Of a stretch of 48,662 nucleotides of DNA, positions 4,809 through 48,308 are shown piece after piece. The stretch is from a virus (taxonomy: Duplodnaviria > Heunggongvirae > Uroviricota > Caudoviricetes): IMG/VR virus record IMGVR_UViG_2547132418_000015. One strand, given 5' to 3'. Every line of letters begins with the position of its first letter. The first letter of the stretch is position 1. A program made the translations under genes and the position numbers. The notes beneath the pieces are model-generated. The model made no database searches. It saw nothing but the letters and a program-made list of their open reading frames with translations, and had not been told where the DNA came from.

Positions 4809-6288
4809 TAATCACCTCAATACTGACACCACCGGGAACAAACAACGGGTTGCTGATACCGTTCCTGCGGGCCAGCCGTTGCCAGTTCCGGCTGTTTCCT
4901 GTGTAACGGTACAGGGCCACCATTGCAGGCATCGTCTCCGGCAGACGGTGCGTTTCACTACCCGCCAGTTGCAGCCCGCGTTTTTCCAGGTCGGCAACAA
5001 CCAGCAGACGCAGTTGCGTAAGCTGAACGCTGTCTGTCGAAAAGCCCTGCTCAGATGCCGTCAGAATGACGGTATCCAGCGCAGCCCCCAGCATGGCGGC
5101 TGTTTTTCCGATATCGGACACACTTTCAAATACCGGGGGCGTGGCTGTACCACTGTCTGAAAAGGATACCTGTGAAAAGCCGCCGTCCGGGGTTATGGCA
5201 GTTAACTGTAACTGTCCCTGTGTGACGGTAGCAGATGTGCTGCTGGCCCCGCTGGCTGTGCCGGTTGTGGTGGACGGGGCATCCAGTACAGGTGCACGGG
5301 TGGCATTATCCCTCCGGCGACTGAAATCCAGTGCCGCAGTCAGTGCCTGGCTGGCAGCTTCTGCCCGGTATGTCTGCGCCGCTGCCAGCATGACGTAGTT
5401 CAGTGTGGCAATATTTTTTTCTGCAACCGGACTGTTGTACGAGGTTGTGATTGCCCCCTGTCTGCCTGCGGTGGCGGCATGGCGACGTTCGAACCGCTGC
5501 GCCAGACGGTTCCAGGTGGAAAATGCTGTCCGGGTATCGCATAACGATGAAACGCCGGATAACGCCCCCATCAGCGAGGAGGCCAGCATGGCTGGTTTAT
5601 TTATCAGGCCGGTCACAGAGCCTTTCATCGCAGAAAGCGATCCCATCAGACCGCTGACAGTCTGCGTAACCCCCAGATTGTCCACCGCATCACTGATATC
5701 ATCGATGACACCGGTTACAGCTTCCATCACGGCGGTTGCCGCCGCAGTGCCATCTTTTACGGTCTGCCAGACAGAGGACAGCGTATCTCCCAGAGAACCG
5801 GTTACAGCAACGGACTGTGCCGGTACGGCTGCACTGGTGTCTGTCTCTGCGTCCGGGGCAGTATCCTGCAACGACGGATAAACGGTAACGGTGAACGCGT
5901 AATAATTCAGTTCATCCGCTTTAGTGCGGCATTCCCATGAATCCACCATGACGGCCACAGTGCCGAAATCAGGATGTACCAGCTCACCGCTACCCGGAGC
6001 ATCAAGAGCATCCATCAGCGCACCCGCTTCATCTCTGGCAGTCTCTGCGTTGCTGTTCAGAATGCAGATGCTGAATGTGCGGGAGCGAAGCTTTTTCCCC
6101 AGGTCGTTGACCCCGCCGGTATCACGTAACGGGTACTCACGTTTAACCAGACGACGTCCGCCAGCCTGTTTTTGCTCCTCGATGACGAGAAACGGCACGT
6201 TACGGAACGTGCCTTTGCCGGTTGTTTTCCTGCCTCCACCGGTTTTATCCCGGACAGCATTAACGGCATTTAAAGCATCTTCAAACAT
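4801..6288 (-). CDS. DNA circularisation protein N-like tail protein (Mu gp43-like)
   Basis: 495-aa ORF directly downstream of the tape measure gene. Confidence 0.75.
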
Positions 6289-6292
6289 GGTT

Positions 6293-8368
6293 TTACCAGC
6301 CTGTAATGTAGTTATCGCCCGCGTAAATATTCAGCCCCATACCATCCTCGGTGACGCGGGAACTGGTCAGACGTAACCCCTCGCCAAGTTCGACGCGCAG
6401 CGAGGCTTCCGCATTCACTTTTTGCTCCTGCGGTTCCTTATCCGTGGCCGTCCACTTCTGATACAGGTCGGTTACAAAACCGCCCAGATACTCCCCGGCG
6501 ACACTGCCCAGCGTGGCACCGGCAACCGTACCCAGCGGTCCGGCAAGGCTGCCAACGGCACCGCCGAGCCATGCACCGGCTGTACTGCCAATTGCGCCTG
6601 CTTTTTCATGGGTTGACGCCTGCTCATCCATCAGGACGGGGGCAAGCTGGAGTGCCCCCATTACCGGGCCACCCAGACGTGACAACGCACGCCCCGCGCC
6701 TTTCCCCATCCAGCCCAGCGCCCCGGCACCTTTTGTCACAACCCGACCGATCGCACTGCCTGCAAGTTTGTTTCCGATACCGGAAAACCCCCCGCCAGCG
6801 GCACGCCCGGCATCAGCCAGCTTTCCGACCGCTCCCGTAACCAGTTGCCCGGCAGCACTGCCTGCAAGCCTGCTCAGAAGACCGGATTTACCGGGTAAAG
6901 GTAATGGTGCAGGCCGTGCCGTTACCGGTACGCCGGGTGGGGGTAATGCCAGAACAGGGCGTGGTGCAGGTAATGCCAGCGGCTGTGGCCCGGACAGCAA
7001 TAACGGCTGGGGGGGGAACAGGGGCGTCATGCCTTTGCCTTTCCGGGTGCGACCACCACGGCCACCGCTTCCGTAACCGCCGAACCCGTGAGGCCAGTTA
7101 GTGACAAACACACGCTGAATGCCGGTGCCCTGCAACAGCGTCTCAGACGTCATGGCATCCGGGACCGGCAGACCTGCCTGCCCACGTTTGCGGTTTCGCA
7201 TCCAGCGCCACATACGACGCCCGGTTTTAAACGGATAACTGGCAACCTGCCATGAGGGGTTTGCCACGGCCCAGCCTGCTCTCAGGGCTTTATTGGCAAG
7301 CCAGACAGACACCAGAACAGCAGCCAGTTTTTTCAGGCTGACAATATTCTGGTCAACCCATGCCAGCGCATCTTTACCCGGTTTCAGCCAGCGCCATAAT
7401 TCCTGCGCCGCGATTTTTACCTTTCTGAACGTGGTCAGGAATTTCTGACCAATGTTTTCTGCCAGTGCGTCCAGCTCCCCGGATTTATCCGCCGCATCGT
7501 GCCAGTTAAGCACCCGGCGCATCTCGTTCTTGATTTCTTCAAAGGGGCCGCTGTTTGCCACCTTCGTGCGAAACTCAAGCAGGTTGCCCTCCATCTGGGC
7601 CATCATCCCGTCCCAGGAGTTCATGGCAGCCGCCTGTGCGCCTTCTGACTGCTCCAGCAGGGTCCGGAATACCGTCAGAATGGCTTTCTTGCCCAGCTTG
7701 CCTTTTTCACCCAGCTTACGGATTTTTTTCTCATCCTTACCCGTTGCATCTGCCAGCACCTTGTAAACGTTGATACCGTAACCGGTCAGCAGGTTGGCGT
7801 CCGCCGCCGTGATTTGCTGGCGGGCAAACATCTGTTTGAACTGTAACGAAGCCCCCTGCGCGGTGGGTAAATCCCAGCCATGCATCGCGCCCTGATTCTG
7901 TAGCATGGTGATGAACTGTTTTACCTGGGCGTCAGTCATGCCAAACGCCGTTGATGTGCGGATTTCCTGCAGAACGCCGCCCAGCCCCCAGGTGGTTTCT
8001 TTTGCGTTCTGCTTCGCCCACGCCATCATGGCCTGTGCTCTGGCCTTATCGCCGTGATACAGCGAGTTCATGGCGATAATCTGCTGCTCACGCTGGGCGG
8101 CGGCACCAATAAACAGTTTATTGGCGGTGTAACCCACGCCAGCGATACCCAGCGCCCCGGCTGACAGCATTCGGAATGTACGGGTTGACAGTGAACCCAT
8201 TCTGTCAATGGCACCAGAAACGCGCACAACCTCCATACGCAGGGCACGAAGGGAACTTTGTCCGCTACGGGACAGGGCGTTTATCTGGTTCGAATACTCG
8301 CGGGAACGCCGGGAAAGATTGCCATTAAGATCAATAATGACAGACGCCTTTAAGCGTTTCCCGGTCAT
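6293..8368 (-). CDS. Tail tape measure protein
   Basis: 691-aa ORF starting MTGKRLKAS with a Gly/Ala/Pro-rich C-terminal part, between chaperone and baseplate genes. Confidence 0.85.
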
Positions 8369-40070: not shown

Positions 40071-40565
40071 CTGTGGGAAACAGGTCAACTTTAATGGACG
40101 CTCCGGACTATGGGAAACAGGTCAACTTCGCGGACGGCCCGGACTATGGGAAACAGGTCAACTTCACGGGCGGCCGGGAGTGTGGGGAACAGGTCAACTT
40201 CGCGGACGGCCCGGACTATGGGAAACAGGTCAACTTCACGGGCGGCCGGGAGTGTGGGGAACAGGTCAACTTCGCGGACGGCCCGGATTATGGGAAACAG
40301 GTCAACTTCGCGGGCGGCCGGGACTGTGGGAAACAGGTCAACTTTGCAGACGGCCCGGACTGTGGGAAACAGGTCAACTTCGCGGGCGGCCGGGAGTGTG
40401 GGGAACAGGTCAACTTCGCGGACGGCCCGGACTAAGGGAAACAGGTCAGCTTCTCGGACGGCCCGGACTATGGGAAACAGGTCAACTTCTCGGACGGTCG
40501 GGAGTGTGGGAAACAGGTCAAGTTAGGCAAGCACTATGGGAAACACAGCAAGTTCAGTATCCCCC
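40071..40565. repeat. Array of 13 direct 36-bp iterons plus one degenerate unit, downstream of rep
   Basis: Unit TGGGAAACAGGTCAACTTCGCGGACGGCCCGGACTA repeated at 36-37-bp period. Confidence 0.9.
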
Positions 40566-40611
40566 CATATGTCAGCAACAAACTAAGGGGGGAGGAAATA
40601 AAAATTACAGA

Positions 40612-41334
40612 CTATTGTTTTTTATCAAGAAAATTAAACAGCAAGCGACCATCTTCTTCAGTGGTATATGTTACCTTTAATGGCGTCTTCTCATTAATTT
40701 TCTTCAGAGCAGGTTCCAGGAAGGTACGCTTCATTTCAGCAATATTGTTTTTCTGCGAGGCAGGGAGCATAAACCTTTCACATAACCAGTCATGTGTGGT
40801 GATCCAGACACCAGTGCTCCGGAACTGACACAGGCTTTCATAAAGCCGGATGACACGAACACTATTAAGCTGGCCACAGTCATAGAGAGAATAGGTAGTG
40901 AACTGGGAGGTTAAGCCGACCAGGAATGGCATGACCTTGTAGTTAAATTCAATCTGCCAGGAACCCCGGCCTCGCTTCATTCCTGCTTCAGCCAGCCACG
41001 GACGTTTAACTTCTTCAAACTCACCTTCTTTTGGATAAAAGGTAACCGTTGATTCGCCCAGAGCATTTACCCCAGCCTTCACATCACGACTGGCGACAGA
41101 CGTAGCGACATTGAAGTATTTGACGTAATCGGAAACGCTGATTTTGAAGAGCGGCAATACGTCAGAGTCATCTTCCTGGCTGTCATTAAAATAGGCCTGC
41201 ATGAGGCATAACCACAGCACACGTTTTGCCTGAAGAGGCAGGTAATATGCAGCTTCGGTCAATTCGTTAGATTGCTTTATACTGGCGCGTTTTTTAAACG
41301 TTTTAGTAGCTGGCAAGAGTGCTTGAGTATCCAT
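40612..41334 (-). CDS. rep: Rep_3/RepE-family replication initiator
   Basis: ORF 40612..41493; start placed at ATG 41334 (MDTQALLPATKTFKKRASIKQSNELTEAAYYL...) because upstream codons overlap origin iterons; RLYESLCQFR motif. Confidence 0.82.
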   Translation of the reverse strand: MDTQALLPATKTFKKRASIKQSNELTEAAYYLPLQAKRVLWLCLMQAYFNDSQEDDSDVLPLFKISVSDYVKYFNVATSVASRDVKAGVNALGESTVTFYPKEGEFEEVKRPWLAEAGMKRGRGSWQIEFNYKVMPFLVGLTSQFTTYSLYDCGQLNSVRVIRLYESLCQFRSTGVWITTHDWLCERFMLPASQKNNIAEMKRTFLEPALKKINEKTPLKVTYTTEEDGRLLFNFLDKKQ

Positions 41335-41399
41335 TTCAATGCCTATGGGTAAATTTTTACCCACCCATAATGACAGTGAAAACAGAAATTGCAAGCTAT

Positions 41400-41690
41400 C
41401 GCGATACTTATCCACCGGAAAAATCTGCACTTTATCCACAAGTGGATAATTGAGAACTGAACTTGACCTCTTTCCCATAGCTTGTTGATGCATATCCCAT
41501 AGCTTGTTGACACAAAACCCACTGATACGTGATTAATTTCCCATATTATGTTTACCAGTTGCCCATACAGGCCCCCTCTCAGGCCGCACTGTACGCGGCT
41601 TTCAGGCTCCCTAAAAGATGTAAAATAAAGAAAAAGAATAAAAAAGTACTTTATAAAAATATGCCCGTGGATAAGTGGATAACCCCGAGG
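41400..41690. other. Vegetative replication origin: DnaA boxes, four spaced iteron cores, AT-rich segment
   Basis: TTATCCACAAGTGGATAA (41433-41450), GTGGATAAGTGGATAA (41666-41681), CCCATA cores at about 41475, 41497, 41541, 41563, AT-rich 41600-41660. Confidence 0.7.
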
Positions 41691-42025
41691 GGAGGTGATT
41701 TTTCAGGCATTGAGCGTAAGCAGAATTTATAAGTTTTGTTCCCTGGTGCTTCCTCGCTCACTCGGGGCTTCGCCCTGTCGCTCGACTGCGGCGAGCACTG
41801 CTGGCTCGATCATATCCGTGGCCGGAAGATACTACTCCTCCCCCGAGTCGCTCTCCAGAGCCGGCTACAGCGAGACAACCCGCACGAAGATTTCTATCGT
41901 CCCTGCAGACATATTCGAATCGTTTTTATTAACCCTGGCTTCCGTCGTGACAGAACACTACGTCCTGTAAAAGGGGGACTAAGGCCCCTGAATCACACAC
42001 CTGAATAATGCGGAGTTTTACGATA

Positions 42026-42112
42026 ATGTCATTGCTGGAAACTTTCCTGACCGCTTCTCAGGGGGCAACAATCCTGTTCCTTGCCATGCTGATTTACTGG
42101 CAAAAGCGATAA
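42026..42112 (+). CDS. Possible 28-aa hydrophobic peptide
   Basis: MSLLETFLTASQGATILFLAMLIYWQKR with GGAG upstream, followed by palindrome GCTGGCCTTTGGCCAGC; not in the ORF track. Confidence 0.25.
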   Translation: MSLLETFLTASQGATILFLAMLIYWQKR

Positions 42113-42240
42113 ATCCAAGCGGGCTGGCCTTTGGCCAGCTTCGCTGTATAAGGGGAAAAATGCGGCATATCCAGACATTTCACTAGGCAATTTGAATTCA
42201 GATATCTATGCTTGGGATCCGGTCAACAGGAGGTAACAAG

Positions 42241-42498
42241 ATGAAACTTGAAACTATACAGATAGATAATACCGTAAGGAGTGGTCTTAATTCTTTCACT
42301 GACGGGGTGATTATTCGTGATACAAAGGTATTGATCACGCTCAATCTCCCGGATGGACAGAAAACCACTATTGAGGGGGAATGGCGGCATATGTCGGACG
42401 CCAACAGGTTGTCAGAACGTATTACGATGCTTCAGCATGCGATCTATGAGCAGTATGAAGAATACAGAGCAGATATTCCCGTCAGCTGGTCCAGATAA
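42241..42498 (+). CDS. Hypothetical 85-aa protein
   Basis: ORF 42208..42498; ATG at 42241 (MKLETIQIDNTVRSG...) with AGGAGG ribosome-binding site. Confidence 0.55.
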   Translation: MKLETIQIDNTVRSGLNSFTDGVIIRDTKVLITLNLPDGQKTTIEGEWRHMSDANRLSERITMLQHAIYEQYEEYRADIPVSWSR

Positions 42499-42555
42499 CG
42501 TCTGACAGACCTCCCCGGCGAGCAGGACGTTCGCCAGCATCATTCTCCTAAGTAC

Positions 42556-43332
42556 TTAAATATTCCCTTTCAGCATGGCTACCGCATCCGCTTCGGGCAT
42601 CTGAAACTGAACTCGATGCCGCGCAGCAACATCAAGTGCGAACACCTTCGTATAGACTTCCGTCGAGCTAATCGATTTGTGGCCCATCAGGCTCTGCAAA
42701 ACCTTCAGTGGTATGCCGGCATACAGCATATGCATCGCGTAGGAGTGGCGGAACGTATGCGGGGTGACCGGCACCGAGAATGTCCCCCCGTCGACGGCGG
42801 CCGCTTCAACCGCTTCGCCAATCCAGGTCCGTACTGTCCGGTCGGTGATGTCCCAGATGCGGGCTTTCTCTGTTCTGCCGGTACGCTTGTTGCGTCTTTC
42901 CAGCGGAATTTTCAGGGTGGCCACCATCATCTGCAGCTGGCTGACGTAGTGGTGATCGGAAAGCGGAACCAGACGATGAGCCTGGCTACCGGCGGGAGCT
43001 CGGCCGGCTGTCCTGGCCGCTTTTTCGGTGCGCTGCTTAAGCGTGGCCAGCTGCACGAACGGATACGGTGGCACCAGCGAAAAATCCCCCCGGGTCAGCG
43101 CCAGCGCCTCGTTGATACGTGCGCCGGTGTTCCAGAGGGTTGCCAGCAGCATCTTGCGGTGCAAATCGGGCACATAATGGAGCAGGGCGCTGACTTCCGG
43201 TGCCAGCAGGTATTTCGGTAGTTCATCTTGAACGAGCGCCATCTGGCGCAGGGCCAGCGCGGCGGGATAGTCAATGGCCACCGGCATTTGCGCCGGCTGC
43301 TGCGGGTGAGAATATGATAAGAGGCCGCTCAT
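42556..43332 (-). CDS. Tyrosine site-specific recombinase, likely plasmid multimer resolvase
   Basis: 258-aa ORF with ...HTFRHSYAMHMLYAGIPLKVLQSLMGHKSISSTEVYTKV... (R-H-R-Y active-site pattern). Confidence 0.85.
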   Translation of the reverse strand: MSGLLSYSHPQQPAQMPVAIDYPAALALRQMALVQDELPKYLLAPEVSALLHYVPDLHRKMLLATLWNTGARINEALALTRGDFSLVPPYPFVQLATLKQRTEKAARTAGRAPAGSQAHRLVPLSDHHYVSQLQMMVATLKIPLERRNKRTGRTEKARIWDITDRTVRTWIGEAVEAAAVDGGTFSVPVTPHTFRHSYAMHMLYAGIPLKVLQSLMGHKSISSTEVYTKVFALDVAARHRVQFQMPEADAVAMLKGNI

Positions 43333-44072
43333 TGGTTTGACATTCCATCAGGTATCACTAATTGATTCCACTCCCTGTTGCGGGTAGCTTCAGCAGCGCG
43401 CAGGGCTCTTTCGCGCCTCCAGACTTTACGAAACACGGAAACTGCAGACCATTCATCATGACCTGTAAGACGTGTTTCGGGCATCCCGGTTGCCTTGCGC
43501 AGACGGACGGCAAGAATGACAGCGTTGATGCCCAAGCGCGTGAACTGATACTGCCGTTCCCTGAAATAGTCCTTATGCCAAGGAGGGTCGGAGTATTCGG
43601 CGGCATATGCAATTGCCCTGTGGGCCTCATCCTGGAGCACCGGCAGTTCACGGATGCGATACATAAGACGTGGCTCTAAAGTCCGCCAGTCACCGGAGAC
43701 ATCGATCAGATTCAGTTCAGGGTAATTCGTGACAGCTTTTCTCTCAGGCTGGGGGGCATCATCATCCTGGCCGTCATCCGTCACAACCCGGAAACAACCC
43801 TCAGCATACCGTTCAAGCATGAATACCAACTCGGTGGCAATGTAATGCAGTTCCTTTTTCATTTTATCTTCTGACGCCTGTCTCTCACGCTTAAGCGTGA
43901 AATAATGTGTCAGCCAGATGCCAGTGAGTGTTATACCCCCAGTAAGCAGGCCAGTGATAAGCCCGGTTGCCACGTTTCCCCAGATCCCCGCCCCTTGATT
44001 AATCAGCTGTACGGAAACCGGATGGGATGTCGCAGCAACTATACTCTCAGTTGCGGCCTGTATATCAGTCAT
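43329..44072 (-). CDS. Hypothetical membrane-anchored protein, stop overlaps the recombinase start
   Basis: 247-aa ORF with N-terminal hydrophobic segment GNVATGLITGLLTGGITLTGIWLTHYF; 4-nt overlap with 42556..43332. Confidence 0.6.
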   Translation of the reverse strand: MTDIQAATESIVAATSHPVSVQLINQGAGIWGNVATGLITGLLTGGITLTGIWLTHYFTLKRERQASEDKMKKELHYIATELVFMLERYAEGCFRVVTDDGQDDDAPQPERKAVTNYPELNLIDVSGDWRTLEPRLMYRIRELPVLQDEAHRAIAYAAEYSDPPWHKDYFRERQYQFTRLGINAVILAVRLRKATGMPETRLTGHDEWSAVSVFRKVWRRERALRAAEATRNREWNQLVIPDGMSNQ

Positions 44073-44122
44073 TGATCATTTACCCCTTTATATTCCTGAG
44101 AAATCCCGCCCTCTGTCCGTAG

Positions 44123-44473
44123 TCAGCGGCCGGCAGCCAGCTCTTCAGCCAGTTTCACAAACCTTTTGTGCTCAGTCTGCAGGTAATGGCTGTAAATCCG
44201 GGCATCACGTTCTGTCAGTCCGGATGGATTGCCGGTGAAGTAACGTTGCAGCACCGCAATACAGTGATTGTAGGTATCGAGATCATATTCCCAGTTTCCC
44301 AGCTCACCGGCCGCATCCAGTTCCTGGCGAAACTGCTCGTATTTACGGAGCAGAATGCCAAGACCTAATTCTGTTGCAGCATAAAGATTATTTTCTCCTG
44401 GCGCGGAAATCGCATTACGGATTTTTTCAAAAGCATAACTGAAATCATTTCTCTCATTGAATGCAGTAAACAT
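44123..44473 (-). CDS. Hypothetical 116-aa protein, first gene of the recombinase operon
   Basis: ORF 50 bp upstream of the membrane-protein gene, same strand. Confidence 0.55.
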   Translation of the reverse strand: MFTAFNERNDFSYAFEKIRNAISAPGENNLYAATELGLGILLRKYEQFRQELDAAGELGNWEYDLDTYNHCIAVLQRYFTGNPSGLTERDARIYSHYLQTEHKRFVKLAEELAAGR

Positions 44474-44549
44474 GTCCTTTCCTCAGTTGAATAGTTAGCC
44501 GTGCAATTTTACCACACCTCAATCATCGTCAGATGAGTGCCACTCTGTC

Positions 44550-44585
44550 GTGACAGTGACTTTCACTAGAGTGATTTTCACATAC
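44550..44585. promoter_or_regulatory. Two short palindromes upstream of the 116-aa gene
   Basis: AGTGA-CTT-TCACT (44555-44567) and GTGA-TTT-TCAC (44571-44581). Confidence 0.4.
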
Positions 44586-44879
44586 TAAAATAATAAGCAG
44601 CCATATAACAACGTAATTAAATTACCTGACGGCCGCTCTGGCCGGATCCGACTTTTATGTTATTCCACAGTTTCCGGAAGTGTACCACGCACACGGAATA
44701 ACCACAGCGCCCTTTCAGGGTGGTGAGCGGCCGGTCACGGGGCAGGGGAGGGACACAACATATATGGTCACTGACAGCTGGAAACACCGCTACATCTTGT
44801 GTTTCCGGGCCGCTGCGCGCCGGCGGGGCTGAATCAGATCCGGAACTGCCTTTTTTCGGATCTGAGCGGGAAAAGTGAG

Positions 44880-45046
44880 AAACCAACATAGGTGTAACAT
44901 ATCCATATGCCGGGCATCTGCATAGGCAAAGCATACGCATATACCTACCATCTGCATATGTAACACCTATACAAGCCGGGCTTGCAGGCATATACTTCAC
45001 CTATGCGGGAATACTCCCTGGCACACTCAGCATATGAGGAAAAACC
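44880..45046. promoter_or_regulatory. Repeat-rich region upstream of vapB
   Basis: Inverted repeat ATAGGTGTAACATAT / ATATGTAACACCTAT; palindromes ATGCCGGGCAT and CAAGCCGGGCTTG; AGGAAAAACC ribosome-binding site before ATG 45047. Confidence 0.4.
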
Positions 45047-45277
45047 ATGCGCACAGTTTCGATATTTAAAAACGGCAATAACCGCGCCATCCGTCTGCCC
45101 CGGGACCTGGATTTTGACGGCGTCAGCGAGCTGGAGATCGTCCGGGAAGGGGACAGCATCATTCTGCGTCCCGTCCGGCCGACCTGGGGCTCGTTCGCGC
45201 AGCTGGACAGGGCCGATCCGGACTTTATGGCGGAGCGTGAGGATGTGGTCAGCGATGAAGGACGTTTTGAGCCATGA
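45047..45277 (+). CDS. vapB: VapB-type antitoxin (AbrB/SpoVT fold)
   Basis: 76-aa MRTVSIFKNGNNRAIRLPRDLDFDGVSELEIVREGDSIILRPV...; stop overlaps the vapC start. Confidence 0.85.
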   Translation: MRTVSIFKNGNNRAIRLPRDLDFDGVSELEIVREGDSIILRPVRPTWGSFAQLDRADPDFMAEREDVVSDEGRFEP

Positions 45278-45914: not shown

Positions 45915-45933
45915 TTGAGCATAGGAGGAGTCT

Positions 45934-46218
45934 ATGGGCACATCACGTTTTACCCCTGAATTTAAGGAAGAGGCCGTCCGCCAGATCACCGAGCGGGGCT
46001 ATTCTATTGCTGAAGTATCTGAACGGCTCGGCGTGTCGGCGCACAGCCTATATAAATGGCTCCGGGCTGTTAAGCCTGACAACAGTGGACAGCAGGCACA
46101 GGATTTACTGGATGCCAGAACAGAAATTCTCAGGCTGAAAGCACAGCTTAAACGCACTGAGGAAGAGCGGGATATTCTGAAAAAGGCAGCGCGGTACTTT
46201 GCAAGGGAGCCCGACTGA
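45934..46218 (+). CDS. IS3-family transposase OrfA
   Basis: 94-aa ORF with helix-turn-helix and leucine-zipper-like C-terminus ending ...DILKKAARYFAREPD; AGGAGG ribosome-binding site. Confidence 0.85.
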   Translation: MGTSRFTPEFKEEAVRQITERGYSIAEVSERLGVSAHSLYKWLRAVKPDNSGQQAQDLLDARTEILRLKAQLKRTEEERDILKKAARYFAREPD

Positions 46219-46265
46219 AGTATCGCTTTATCAACGATCACCGTGAAATCTGGTCGATCGTTACA

Positions 46266-46620
46266 ATGTGTCGGGTCCTTAAGGTTGCCCGTGCCGGATT
46301 TTATGTCTGGCTCCATAACCCTGTATCTGCCGGAGAAAAGGATAACCAGCGACTGCTGGAACTCATCCGCGACTCCTATACGCTGAGTGGTGGAGTTTAC
46401 GGTTATCGCAGGGTTCATGGCGATCTTCGCGAAATTGGCGAAGTGTGCAGCAGAAACCGGGTTGCCAAAATCATGAGGAAAAACAGGATTCAGGCTATAC
46501 ATGGTTATAAAGTGCCACGCGGGAGCCGGGGACGACCGTCACTGATAGCGCCTAATCACGTGCGGCGTGAATTTACTGTAGTGAAGCCCAATCAGGTGTG
46601 GGTCACCGACATCACCTACA
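46266..46620 (+). pseudogene. IS3-family transposase OrfB, N-terminal part, interrupted by a group II intron
   Basis: Ends ...NQVWVTDITY, then the reading frame enters intron sequence beginning GTGTG at 46621. Confidence 0.8.
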
Positions 46621-48308
46621 GTGTGCCCGGAGTTCAGGGCGGGCATGGATGCTTAAATGAACCGCGAGTCTGTCTGGAATATTGAACCGGTAACTCACGA
46701 TGAGAAACCCAACAATCCCACCGGGTGTGACGGTGGAGAACCTGAGCGGCAGTGACCTGCGGCATGCCCGCAGGGTGATGTAACCCGCTGACAACGGGGA
46801 TTGAGGCGAGATCACTAAGCCGAGATGATCCTCAAGGTTAAGTACTGAAAGGCTGAAGAACATGAACCCGTTAATCCGCCTCTGTGGGTTGAAAACGTCA
46901 CCACGGCCTACGTGATCTGACAGGCCGTGCAGGAGGAACTGGCAGTGATACGTAAGCACTGCCGGTCGAAGGTGTTTTGACATGTATGCGAAACACCGGG
47001 GCAGCAGCGTCTATCACGCTTGCGTTGCTGACTTCTGCCAACTTGCGGCAAGCAAGGATAAAGAGTGCGACGGGCAGCCTCCTCAGTATGCCTGAGTCCA
47101 GGCAGGTAAACCGGGGAAGGTCAGCGACGGATGTTAAGGGGGCATGGCTCCGATGACGCGCTGGCTGGCGGAGCTTCCGTAGTAGTCCGCGATGGGGAAA
47201 GCCCATTACATGGCGAAGGGAAGCAGTTTGAATGTGTTTGCGACGTGAATTAACTGACCTAACGAGGTGAAGACCTTTGATAATCAGCGAAATGCAACGC
47301 AAGCTTGCCACATGGGCAGCCACCGATCCGTCCCTACGGATTCAACGGCTGCTGCGTCTGATAACACAACCAGAATGGCTGGCTGAAGCGGCGCGGATCA
47401 CGCTTTCATCAAAGGGGGCGCATACCCCCGGCGTTGATGGCGTGAACAAAACAATGCTACAGGCCAGACTGGCTGTTGAGCTGCAAATCCTCAGGGATGA
47501 ATTACTCTCAGGCCACTACCAGCCCTTGCCCGCCAGACGGGTTTACATCCCTAAAAGCAACGGCAAACTGCGACCACTGGGTATCCCCGCGTTGCGGGAT
47601 CGTATTGTTCAGCGGGCCATGCTGATGGCGATGGAGCCGATATGGGAGAGTGATTTTCATACGCTCTCATATGGCTTCCGGCCTGAGCGCAGTGTCCACC
47701 ACGCGATCCGCACGGTGAAATTACAGCTCACAGACTGCGGTGAAACCCGGGGACGCTGGGTGATTGAAGGCGACCTGTCCAGTTACTTCGACACCGTACA
47801 TCATCGACTGCTGATGAAGGCTGTACGCCGCAGGATCAGTGACGCACGTTTCATGACTCTGCTGTGGAAAACCATCAAGGCGGGACATATCGATGTCGGT
47901 CTCTTTCGGGCGGCCAGTGAAGGTGTGCCACAGGGCGGTGTTATATCGCCGCTATTATCGAACATCATGCTGAATGAGTTCGATCAATACCTGCATGAGC
48001 GCTACCTGAGCGGGAAAGCCAGAAAAGATCGGTGGTACTGGAATAACAGTATCCAACGGGGCCGAAGTACGGCGGTCAGAGAAAACTGGCAGTGGAAACC
48101 CGCGGTGGCGTACTGCCGCTATGCCGATGATTTTGTCCCCATCGTCAAAGGCACCAAAGCACAGGCGGAAGCCATCAGGGAGGAGTGTCGGGGTGTGCTC
48201 GAAGGCAGTCTGAAACTCAGGCTGAACATGGATAAGACTAAAATCACCCATGTTAATGACGGCTTTATCTTTCTGGGGCACAGGATCATTCGCAAACGCA
48301 GTCGTTAT
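46621..48308 (+). mobile_element. Group II intron 2 (5' part), inserted in IS3-family orfB and truncated by IS26
   Basis: Starts GTGTGCCCGG; about 656 nt of structured 5' region, then a reverse transcriptase ORF that runs into the IS26 terminal repeat at 48309. Confidence 0.8.
47277..48308 (+). pseudogene. Group II intron reverse transcriptase/maturase, C-terminally truncated by IS26
   Basis: ORF 47277..48335 with HTPGVDGVNK, YIPKSNGKLRPLG, YCRYADDFV motifs; last residues are read from the IS26 terminal repeat. Confidence 0.85.

Follow-up and report, generated by a model that had tools for sequence, protein, structure and literature searches.

The stretch of DNA analysed here (the window; 48,662 nt, IMG/VR virus record IMGVR_UViG_2547132418_000015) carries three consecutive open reading frames (ORFs) on its minus strand, which we name p116, p247 and resD, and a conserved non-coding element upstream of them that is homologous to the rfsF region of the F plasmid (Table 1). 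A preliminary description, made from the letters alone, had seen an operon of three genes with a 4-nt overlap between the second and the third, and two short GTGA-N3-TCAC palindromes ahead of the first. The ORF list and a pattern count confirmed all three ORFs, the overlap and both palindromes. The recombinase encoded by resD and its site are already known from other plasmids; the two genes lodged between them are the less familiar part of the locus.

Table 1. Features of the resD operon and its upstream region, in window coordinates.
Feature	Coordinates	Strand	Description
resD (rsd)	42556..43332	-	258 aa; short tyrosine recombinase, plasmid multimer resolvase (predicted)
p247	43329..44072	-	247 aa; hydrophobic Gly/Thr-rich N-terminal helix, C-terminal four-helix bundle; PADLOC PDC-S67 family
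p116	44123..44473	-	First operon gene; 116 aa, acidic, cytoplasmic, four-helix bundle
Leader and putative promoter-operator region	44474..44590	-	Two palindromes; extended -10 found by eye
Conserved region between rfsF core and leader	44591..44835	-	Homologous to F rfsF/oriV1 region
Proposed rfsF core	44836..44863	-	28 bp: AGATCCGAAA, AAAGGCAG, TTCCGGATCT; 10-bp inverted arms, 8-bp spacer

The recombinase matches PF00589 over residues 41-230 (E 2.4e-18). All catalytic residues, read from the translation and from an alignment to a XerC-like PDB chain, are present: R72 (TGARINE), H192-x-x-R195 (HTFRHS), H218 (GHKS) and Y227 (VYTKV). Its alignment with XerD begins only at XerD residue 94, and the N-terminal core-binding domain of ~90 aa is absent. 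The protein is 91% identical over 244 aa to ResD of F (the D protein, encoded by the gene after ccdAB) and 89% identical to RsdB of the Salmonella plasmid pSLT, and by sequence it is the orthologue of both. ResD has been cited as a site-specific resolvase acting at rfsF (PMC4398462), and RsdB as a putative multimer resolvase found by Krause and Guiney in 1991 (PMC5065971). With these identities, and with a homologue of the F rfsF region upstream, the preliminary assignment as a probable multimer resolvase was right; we predict that the window ResD resolves plasmid multimers and cointegrates in vivo. A second ResD paralogue or remnant, 46-52% identical, lies beside the RepFIB replicon in F (locus L041 of our collection, 5619-6359) and pSLT (L011, 16144-16362); it is distinct from the rfsF-linked resD.

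Local BLAST of positions 41400-45100 against the fetched loci delimited a non-coding element of ~280 bp, at about 44590-44890. The span of the preliminary description stops short of the recombination site, which starts just past its end. The element is 72-85% identical, with hardly any insertions or deletions, upstream of ccdAB-rsdB in pSLT and in ColV, IncFIB(K), IncI-gamma and IncR plasmids and a Kosakonia chromosomal island, and it is conserved whatever genes separate it from the recombinase. A blastn search found it in at least 5000 of 72,556 plasmids. It aligns with the pifC-ccdA intergenic region of F, where rfsF and oriV1 have been annotated (PMC4398462).

Several boxes within the element are invariant: GATCCG, ACTTCCGG (44681-44674), TCGGATC (44651-44645), GTAATT and an inverted ACACAA...TTGTGT pair. 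These blocks look like protein-binding DNA, and the ~245 bp between core and leader probably comprise accessory and regulatory binding sites. Two other explanations of the conservation were rejected. For a structured RNA, RNAalifold on 14 diverse copies gave a covariation term of 0 and just one compensatory pair, and no Rfam family matched the element. A hidden 127-aa ORF (44617-45000) showed no codon periodicity (variability 0.233, 0.225 and 0.219 by codon position); because invariant blocks of 6-8 nt lie in this stretch, the constraint acts at the level of DNA and not of coding. Three GATC (Dam) sites are also invariant in the 14 diverse copies, two in the arms of the rfsF core (44862-44859 and 44840-44837) and one in the TCGGATC box (44648-44645). 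Methylation of these sites, and through it replication, may affect how ResD binds or how the operon is expressed.

The proposed crossover core of rfsF sits at the vapBC-proximal end of the element. Inverted arms around a spacer are the canonical layout of a tyrosine-recombinase core. The motif occurs once in the window, against 0.03 matches expected, and the core motif recurs at F nt 45922-45949, with spacer ACCCCAAG in F versus AAAGGCAG in the window. Among 21 copies compared, the arms hardly change and the spacer varies (AAAGGCAG, ACCCCAGG, TCTGTCAG, AATACCAG and others). In the published account of F, nt 45922 is the first base of the RepFIA segment, a homology that starts with the rfsF sites (PMC4398462).

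Relatedness to the window switches at this core. In two loci (L014 and L015) the vapBC side, spacer included, is 100% identical to the window and the resD side 59-64%; in two others (L001 and L018) the vapBC side is 27-46% and the resD side 99-100% identical. As read from these alignments, the switch is the footprint of site-specific exchange. Similarly, IncI1 gene sets change over at rfsF (PMC8004404), and IncR plasmids have foreign DNA inserted beside it (PMC9412624). The junctions, the homology with F and the agreement with the IncI1 and IncR reports are the reasons for which we assign these 28 bp as the rfsF core.

Insertions recur on the vapBC side of the core, which is a hotspot for them. 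In the window rfsF abuts the vapBC promoter (44836-45046); in related plasmids this position holds 5-6 kb of genes of the defence type, either SMODS/S-4TM with AAA ATPases or pifC-pifA (L001, 10465-16870; L003, 6700-11760). The pif block of F is flanked by the rfsF core at nt 45922 and a degenerate second copy, AGATCCGAAAAAAGGTAAAACCGGAACT, at nt 41090 (L041, 15923-15950 and 11091-11118), an arrangement that looks like integration by ResD. In the window, a 17-bp-periodic array adjoins the core, between it and the vapB start (44887-45036). Tandem Repeats Finder (TRF) reports 3.4 copies at 44904-44960, a separate repeat search gives spacings of 34 and 51 bp, and an imperfect 40-nt palindrome (44888-44970) lies in the same region. 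The array could be the VapB operator. It also recalls the Salmonella site crs of pSDL2, in which Krause and Guiney (1991) reportedly described inverted repeats preceded by eight imperfect repeats of 17 bp, and it may correspond to these.

Downstream of the leader, the organisation of the three genes is compact. The p247 and resD ORFs share the 4 nt ATGA, the gap of 50 nt between p116 and p247 contains an AAGGGG ribosome-binding site, and a site scan found no terminator-like sites inside the operon. The spacing thus fits the three-gene operon proposed earlier, and the equivalent ccdAB-rsdB operon of pSLT was shown to be co-transcribed by reverse transcription PCR (RT-PCR; PMC5065971). The base composition of the three genes is sharply unlike: the G+C content at third codon positions is 69.5% in resD (59.5% G+C overall), 52.4% in p247 and 45.3% in p116.

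The two leader palindromes, GTGACTTTCAC (44556-44566) and GTGATTTTCAC (44571-44581), lie 15 bp apart and are two of only three GTGA-N3-TCAC copies in the 48.6-kb window, against 0.68 expected. The promoter-distal one (44571-44581) is kept as GTGAT-N2-T(N)AC across most cargo variants; the other is confined to p116-type leaders. The palindromes are real, but the promoter in which the preliminary description had placed them was not recovered by a simple sigma-70 scan of the minus strand at 44474-44620. By eye, we found a candidate extended -10, TGGTAAAAT, at 44514-44506, and we infer the location of the operon promoter from this sequence. The D protein of F is said to act also as a transcription repressor (Lane et al., 1986). 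If this holds here, ResD would by analogy be the first protein to consider as a ligand of the conserved palindrome.

We compared the genes that occupy the interval between rfsF and resD in different plasmids. The slot holds ccdA and ccdB in F; ccdAB with a 96-aa and a 173-aa ORF in pSLT; ccdAB with three ORFs in a Klebsiella IncFIB(K) plasmid; a single 126-aa ORF in an IncI-gamma plasmid; and a small ORF with a p247-family gene in the window, ColV plasmids and others. Direct comparison showed that the 96- and 173-aa ORFs of pSLT are unrelated to p116 and p247, and no slot protein other than CcdAB has a Pfam or PADLOC match. Replacement within the slot can be precise. Against a ColV plasmid, nucleotide similarity is 88% over p116 and 81% over resD, and the stretch where it is lost coincides exactly with the p247 ORF and the ~16 opening codons of resD; the corresponding protein identities are 97% for p116, 36% for p247 and 92% for ResD.

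The p247 protein has no Pfam match and no recognisable sensor or effector domain. A hydrophobic Gly/Thr-rich stretch at residues 34-52 is followed by KRER and reaches a Kyte-Doolittle 19-residue maximum of 1.54. An AlphaFold model built with 46 homologues is confident for residues ~50-230, which form a long helix and then a four-helix bundle; the hydrophobic segment is the start of the long helix, where confidence is low. The earlier label of a membrane-anchored protein is thus plausible but unproven, given the moderate hydropathy and the low-confidence model. Structure prediction, suggested at the outset as a check, gave helix bundles for both p247 and p116 but no mechanistic clue from fold neighbours. 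The one strong family assignment is to the PADLOC PDC-S67 hidden Markov model (HMM), which p247 matches over residues 47-236 (E 3.6e-45) and which its divergent alleles match too. For the operon proteins, NCBIfam and PHROGs returned only near-identical unnamed families or sub-threshold matches, and the literature searched made no mention of PDC-S67 or of the RefSeq protein accessions.

The p247 family is large and diverges fast. A profile search against 1.84 billion representatives returned 964 clusters at E<=1e-3, nearly all of 180-250 aa and matching end to end. In PLSDB, p247 occurs in 1990 plasmids with a bimodal distribution of identity, 942 at >=95% and 1041 at <60%. Using the p247 profile and one genome per species (25 loci), we found resD directly after p247, intact or nearly so, in 20 of 25; ResD was 65-93% identical in these loci and p247 39-55%. 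Overall, p247 identity runs at 35-55% in loci with ResD at 65-95%, and on one metagenomic contig a p247 of 35% identity stands beside a ResD of 81%. The exceptions were a Pectobacterium betavasculorum locus with no resD, a truncated Citrobacter copy and three Stenotrophomonas genes. These last are chromosomal homologues (27-33%) that lie solitary between housekeeping genes. Separate loci of another Pectobacterium retain only resD codons 14-47. Among more distant relatives, one has parA as its neighbour, another is solitary in a chromosome, and a third sits between a divergently oriented integrase and an Abi_C gene. Conversely, ResD without p247, as in F, pSLT, IncFIB(K) and IncI plasmids, is far commoner than ResD with it. 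The adjacency of p247 and resD is therefore real in the enterobacterial clade but does not extend across the whole family.

These distributions qualify two earlier expectations. The three-gene arrangement, whose conservation across plasmids had been proposed as a check, is only partly conserved: the p247-resD pair is frequent, but the first gene is swapped and ResD often occurs without p247. Likewise, the suggestion that an unusual partner of the recombinase marks an accessory system agrees with the adjacency at species level, but not with the many ResD loci that lack p247, the unrelated genes in the same slot or the stand-alone distant homologues.

The p116 protein is modelled with confidence as a four-helix bundle (AlphaFold pLDDT 94), and a fold search gave generic structural neighbours only. 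Its family is narrow, with members in 1607 plasmids, mostly at >=90% identity. A weak match to Phage_int_SAM_4 (E 0.024) is far under the cut-off; p116 as a split core-binding (SAM-like) domain was rejected on this sub-threshold match and the lack of fold support. In the IncR plasmid pK432-TEM, p247 and ResD are identical to those of the window and an unrelated 85-aa ORF replaces p116. In other plasmids the gene that follows p116 is p247, a p247 allele of 36% identity or one encoding an unrelated 202-aa protein, and the small ORFs that lie upstream of p247 homologues represent at least six families with no relation to each other. One E. coli plasmid lineage, which is very abundant (1103 index blocks; L048-L051, 5001-6860), carries a 71%-identical p116, then a 202-aa soluble protein without a family match, then a resD frameshifted near codon 80.

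Taken together, we regard the locus as probably a ResD-rfsF multimer-resolution operon of an IncR/IncF-type plasmid, in which the upstream genes are passenger cargo rather than cofactors of ResD, and p247 is likely a membrane-acting conflict protein. A plasmid dimer would arise by replication or homologous recombination, and ResD would pair the two directly repeated rfsF sites and swap strands in the 8-bp spacer of the core, with accessory or regulatory proteins bound at the conserved base pairs between core and operon. Transcription would start from a promoter at ~44505-44550, with the conserved GTGA-N3-TCAC palindrome as operator. In this scheme p116 and p247 would fill the slot that ccdAB occupies in F; they would be co-expressed with resD, p247 through translational coupling, and be dispensable for recombination. 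That ResD does not need them follows from F and pSDL2/pSLT, which have neither. The p247 protein, a member of a large, fast-evolving family, would be a cytoplasmic four-helix bundle anchored N-terminally in the membrane, and would most likely act there, in abortive infection or phage exclusion or in killing plasmid-free segregants; p116 would be a small partner that assorts independently. A conflict role for the cargo (phage defence or exclusion, or plasmid addiction) would fit the ccdAB position, the fast, allele-like divergence of p247, the putative membrane anchor and the homologues in mobile and defence contexts.

Several observations weigh against this reading. The transmembrane segment of p247 is only moderately hydrophobic, and the fold searches with the upstream proteins returned nothing that points to a mechanism. 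The core is placed by comparative junctions and homology with F rather than by a mapped crossover, and so its position is likewise one that we infer. The PDC-S67 family is one of 145 untested candidates, put forward because a homologue was once seen inside a locus for BREX, DISARM or type I restriction-modification (RM) (bioRxiv 10.1101/2024.01.29.577857). Finally, p247 in Enterobacterales is almost never found away from resD, the exceptions being mostly decayed or from Stenotrophomonas, and the ATGA overlap suggests coupled expression; overlap and adjacency together are what a dedicated accessory factor would be expected to show. Such a factor could be p247, with or without p116, acting as a membrane-tethered positioner or regulator of ResD or as a stand-in for its core-binding domain. 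FtsK, which couples XerCD resolution to the membrane or septum, offers an analogy. The pairing in 20 of 25 species-level loci, its persistence on the metagenomic contig at 35% p247 identity, the recurrence of the 4-nt overlap in Kosakonia, the missing N-terminal domain of ResD and even the weak Phage_int_SAM_4 match of p116 all agree with this explanation. The close linkage of the two genes and their translational coupling keep it alive, but at a low probability, and we consider it very doubtful.

The position of the two genes invites comparison with ccdAB, which precedes the resolvase gene in F, pSLT and Klebsiella plasmids. If p116 and p247 were an addiction pair in place of ccdAB, p247 would be the toxin, one that damages membranes and has a glycine-zipper-like helix, p116 would neutralise it, and segregants without the plasmid would die. 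Consistent with such a pair are the layout, in which the first gene is small and acidic and the second larger, the Gly/Thr-rich hydrophobic helix and a faint match to a holin family (phrog_4237, E 0.013). However, the independent assortment of p116 and p247 argues against a cognate toxin-antitoxin (TA) pair: an identical p247 follows the unrelated 85-aa ORF, p116 precedes unrelated second genes, and the variety of small-ORF families upstream of p247 homologues is of the same kind. Rather than travelling together, as the partners of a type II TA system do, both genes occur with unrelated partners; the stand-alone Stenotrophomonas homologues have none. Nor does either protein match a TA family in Pfam, NCBIfam or PADLOC. 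We therefore think an addiction pair quite unlikely. Somewhat less improbable, though still doubtful, is that p247 defends against phage on its own, as its label of a single-gene PDC-S67 system proposes, and is merely lodged in the resD operon. The strength of the HMM match, its extension to divergent alleles, the fast evolution and allelic replacement of p247, the pifCA, SMODS/S-4TM and AAA ATPase genes that flank rfsF in related plasmids and the Abi_C gene adjoining a distant homologue all speak for defence. But these candidates are "guilt by embedding" predictions, with 0 of 145 tested (bioRxiv 10.1101/2024.01.29.577857), and p247 offers no recognisable sensor or effector domain. Travel with the recombinase could alone explain the embedding of a homologue in a defence locus, and the label may be an artefact of it.

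A broader proposal, which we consider unlikely, is that the rfsF-resD interval is a dedicated, exchangeable cargo slot for small conflict modules in enterobacterial plasmids and islands. On this proposal ccdAB would be the sole characterised occupant, and p116-p247 would be a new two-gene membrane-acting system, for abortive infection or post-segregational killing, with expression wired to the resolvase operon and hence to the plasmid's multimer or copy state. What the comparison establishes is narrower: the arrangement is a different cargo in a known operon, and its two upstream proteins are uncharacterised and offer no mechanistic handle.

The plasmids whose backbones include the ResD/rfsF module (IncF, IncR, IncI and Klebsiella IncFIB(K)) are the chief carriers of resistance and virulence genes in Enterobacterales, and the uncharacterised genes between site and resolvase are present in ~2000 sequenced plasmids. 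If a defence or addiction role proved true, these genes would be further factors keeping such plasmids in their hosts, and the PDC-S67 family would be mostly a passenger of the resolvase operon. If they are cargo without a phenotype, the case is an ordinary annotation gap. In either event, a comparatively defined rfsF core with a variable spacer is useful for reading plasmid mosaics.

An IncR-type replicon occupies 40074-41521. In it a 36-bp iteron is repeated 12.4 times (40074-40521), and a Rep3-family initiator on the minus strand (41493..40612) has 22-bp repeats at its start. The window thus has an IncR-like backbone, in the order repB, resD, rfsF, vagCD. Convergent to resD is a 96-aa ORF on the plus strand (42208-42498; annotated as 85 aa, WP_000764642.1, phrog_31850). 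It is 96-100% conserved beside resD in IncR, IncFIB(K) and other plasmids and has no domain match. At the other end, ORFs of an IS3-family transposase (orfA/orfB-like) span 45934-46685; as they begin ~250 bp past vapC, the conserved backbone ends there. A 2183-bp contig assigned to Haemophilus sputorum (L016, NZ_AFNK01000058.1) spans vapB, the rfsF element, p116, p247 and the first part of resD, with proteins 100% and the element 99.7% identical to the window. The contig more likely derives from an enterobacterial plasmid that contaminated the assembly than from a Pasteurellaceae genome.

The window can be set against four known systems. The PDC-S67 family has in common with it the HMM match of p247 and its divergent alleles; the candidates of that set were defined from BREX, DISARM and type I RM loci, whereas p247 lies in a plasmid resolvase operon. 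The backbone of IncR plasmids includes rfsF-resD and vagCD (PMC9412624). The window shares with it the Rep3 initiator, 36-bp iterons, resD, rfsF and vapBC, and its proteins are identical to those of pK432-TEM; however, published descriptions name rfsF-resD only and not the genes between, and pK432-TEM has the 85-aa ORF in place of p116. The Salmonella Rsd/crs system (pSDL2; rsdB in pSLT) likewise has a recombinase that is 89% identical and a conserved upstream element, and its resolvase gene is the distal gene of a polycistronic operon (PMC5065971). pSLT differs in carrying ccdAB with its 96- and 173-aa ORFs and a further gene after rsdB. The layout of F, rfsF-oriV1-ccdAB-resD (PMC4398462), is also parallel: the recombinase is 91% identical, the element is homologous, the 28-bp core is common to both, and the order of site, promoter, two genes and resD is the same. 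The two differ in their cargo (ccdAB in F, p116 and p247 here), in the genes on the other side of rfsF (pifC in F, vapBC, or vagCD, here) and in their spacers.

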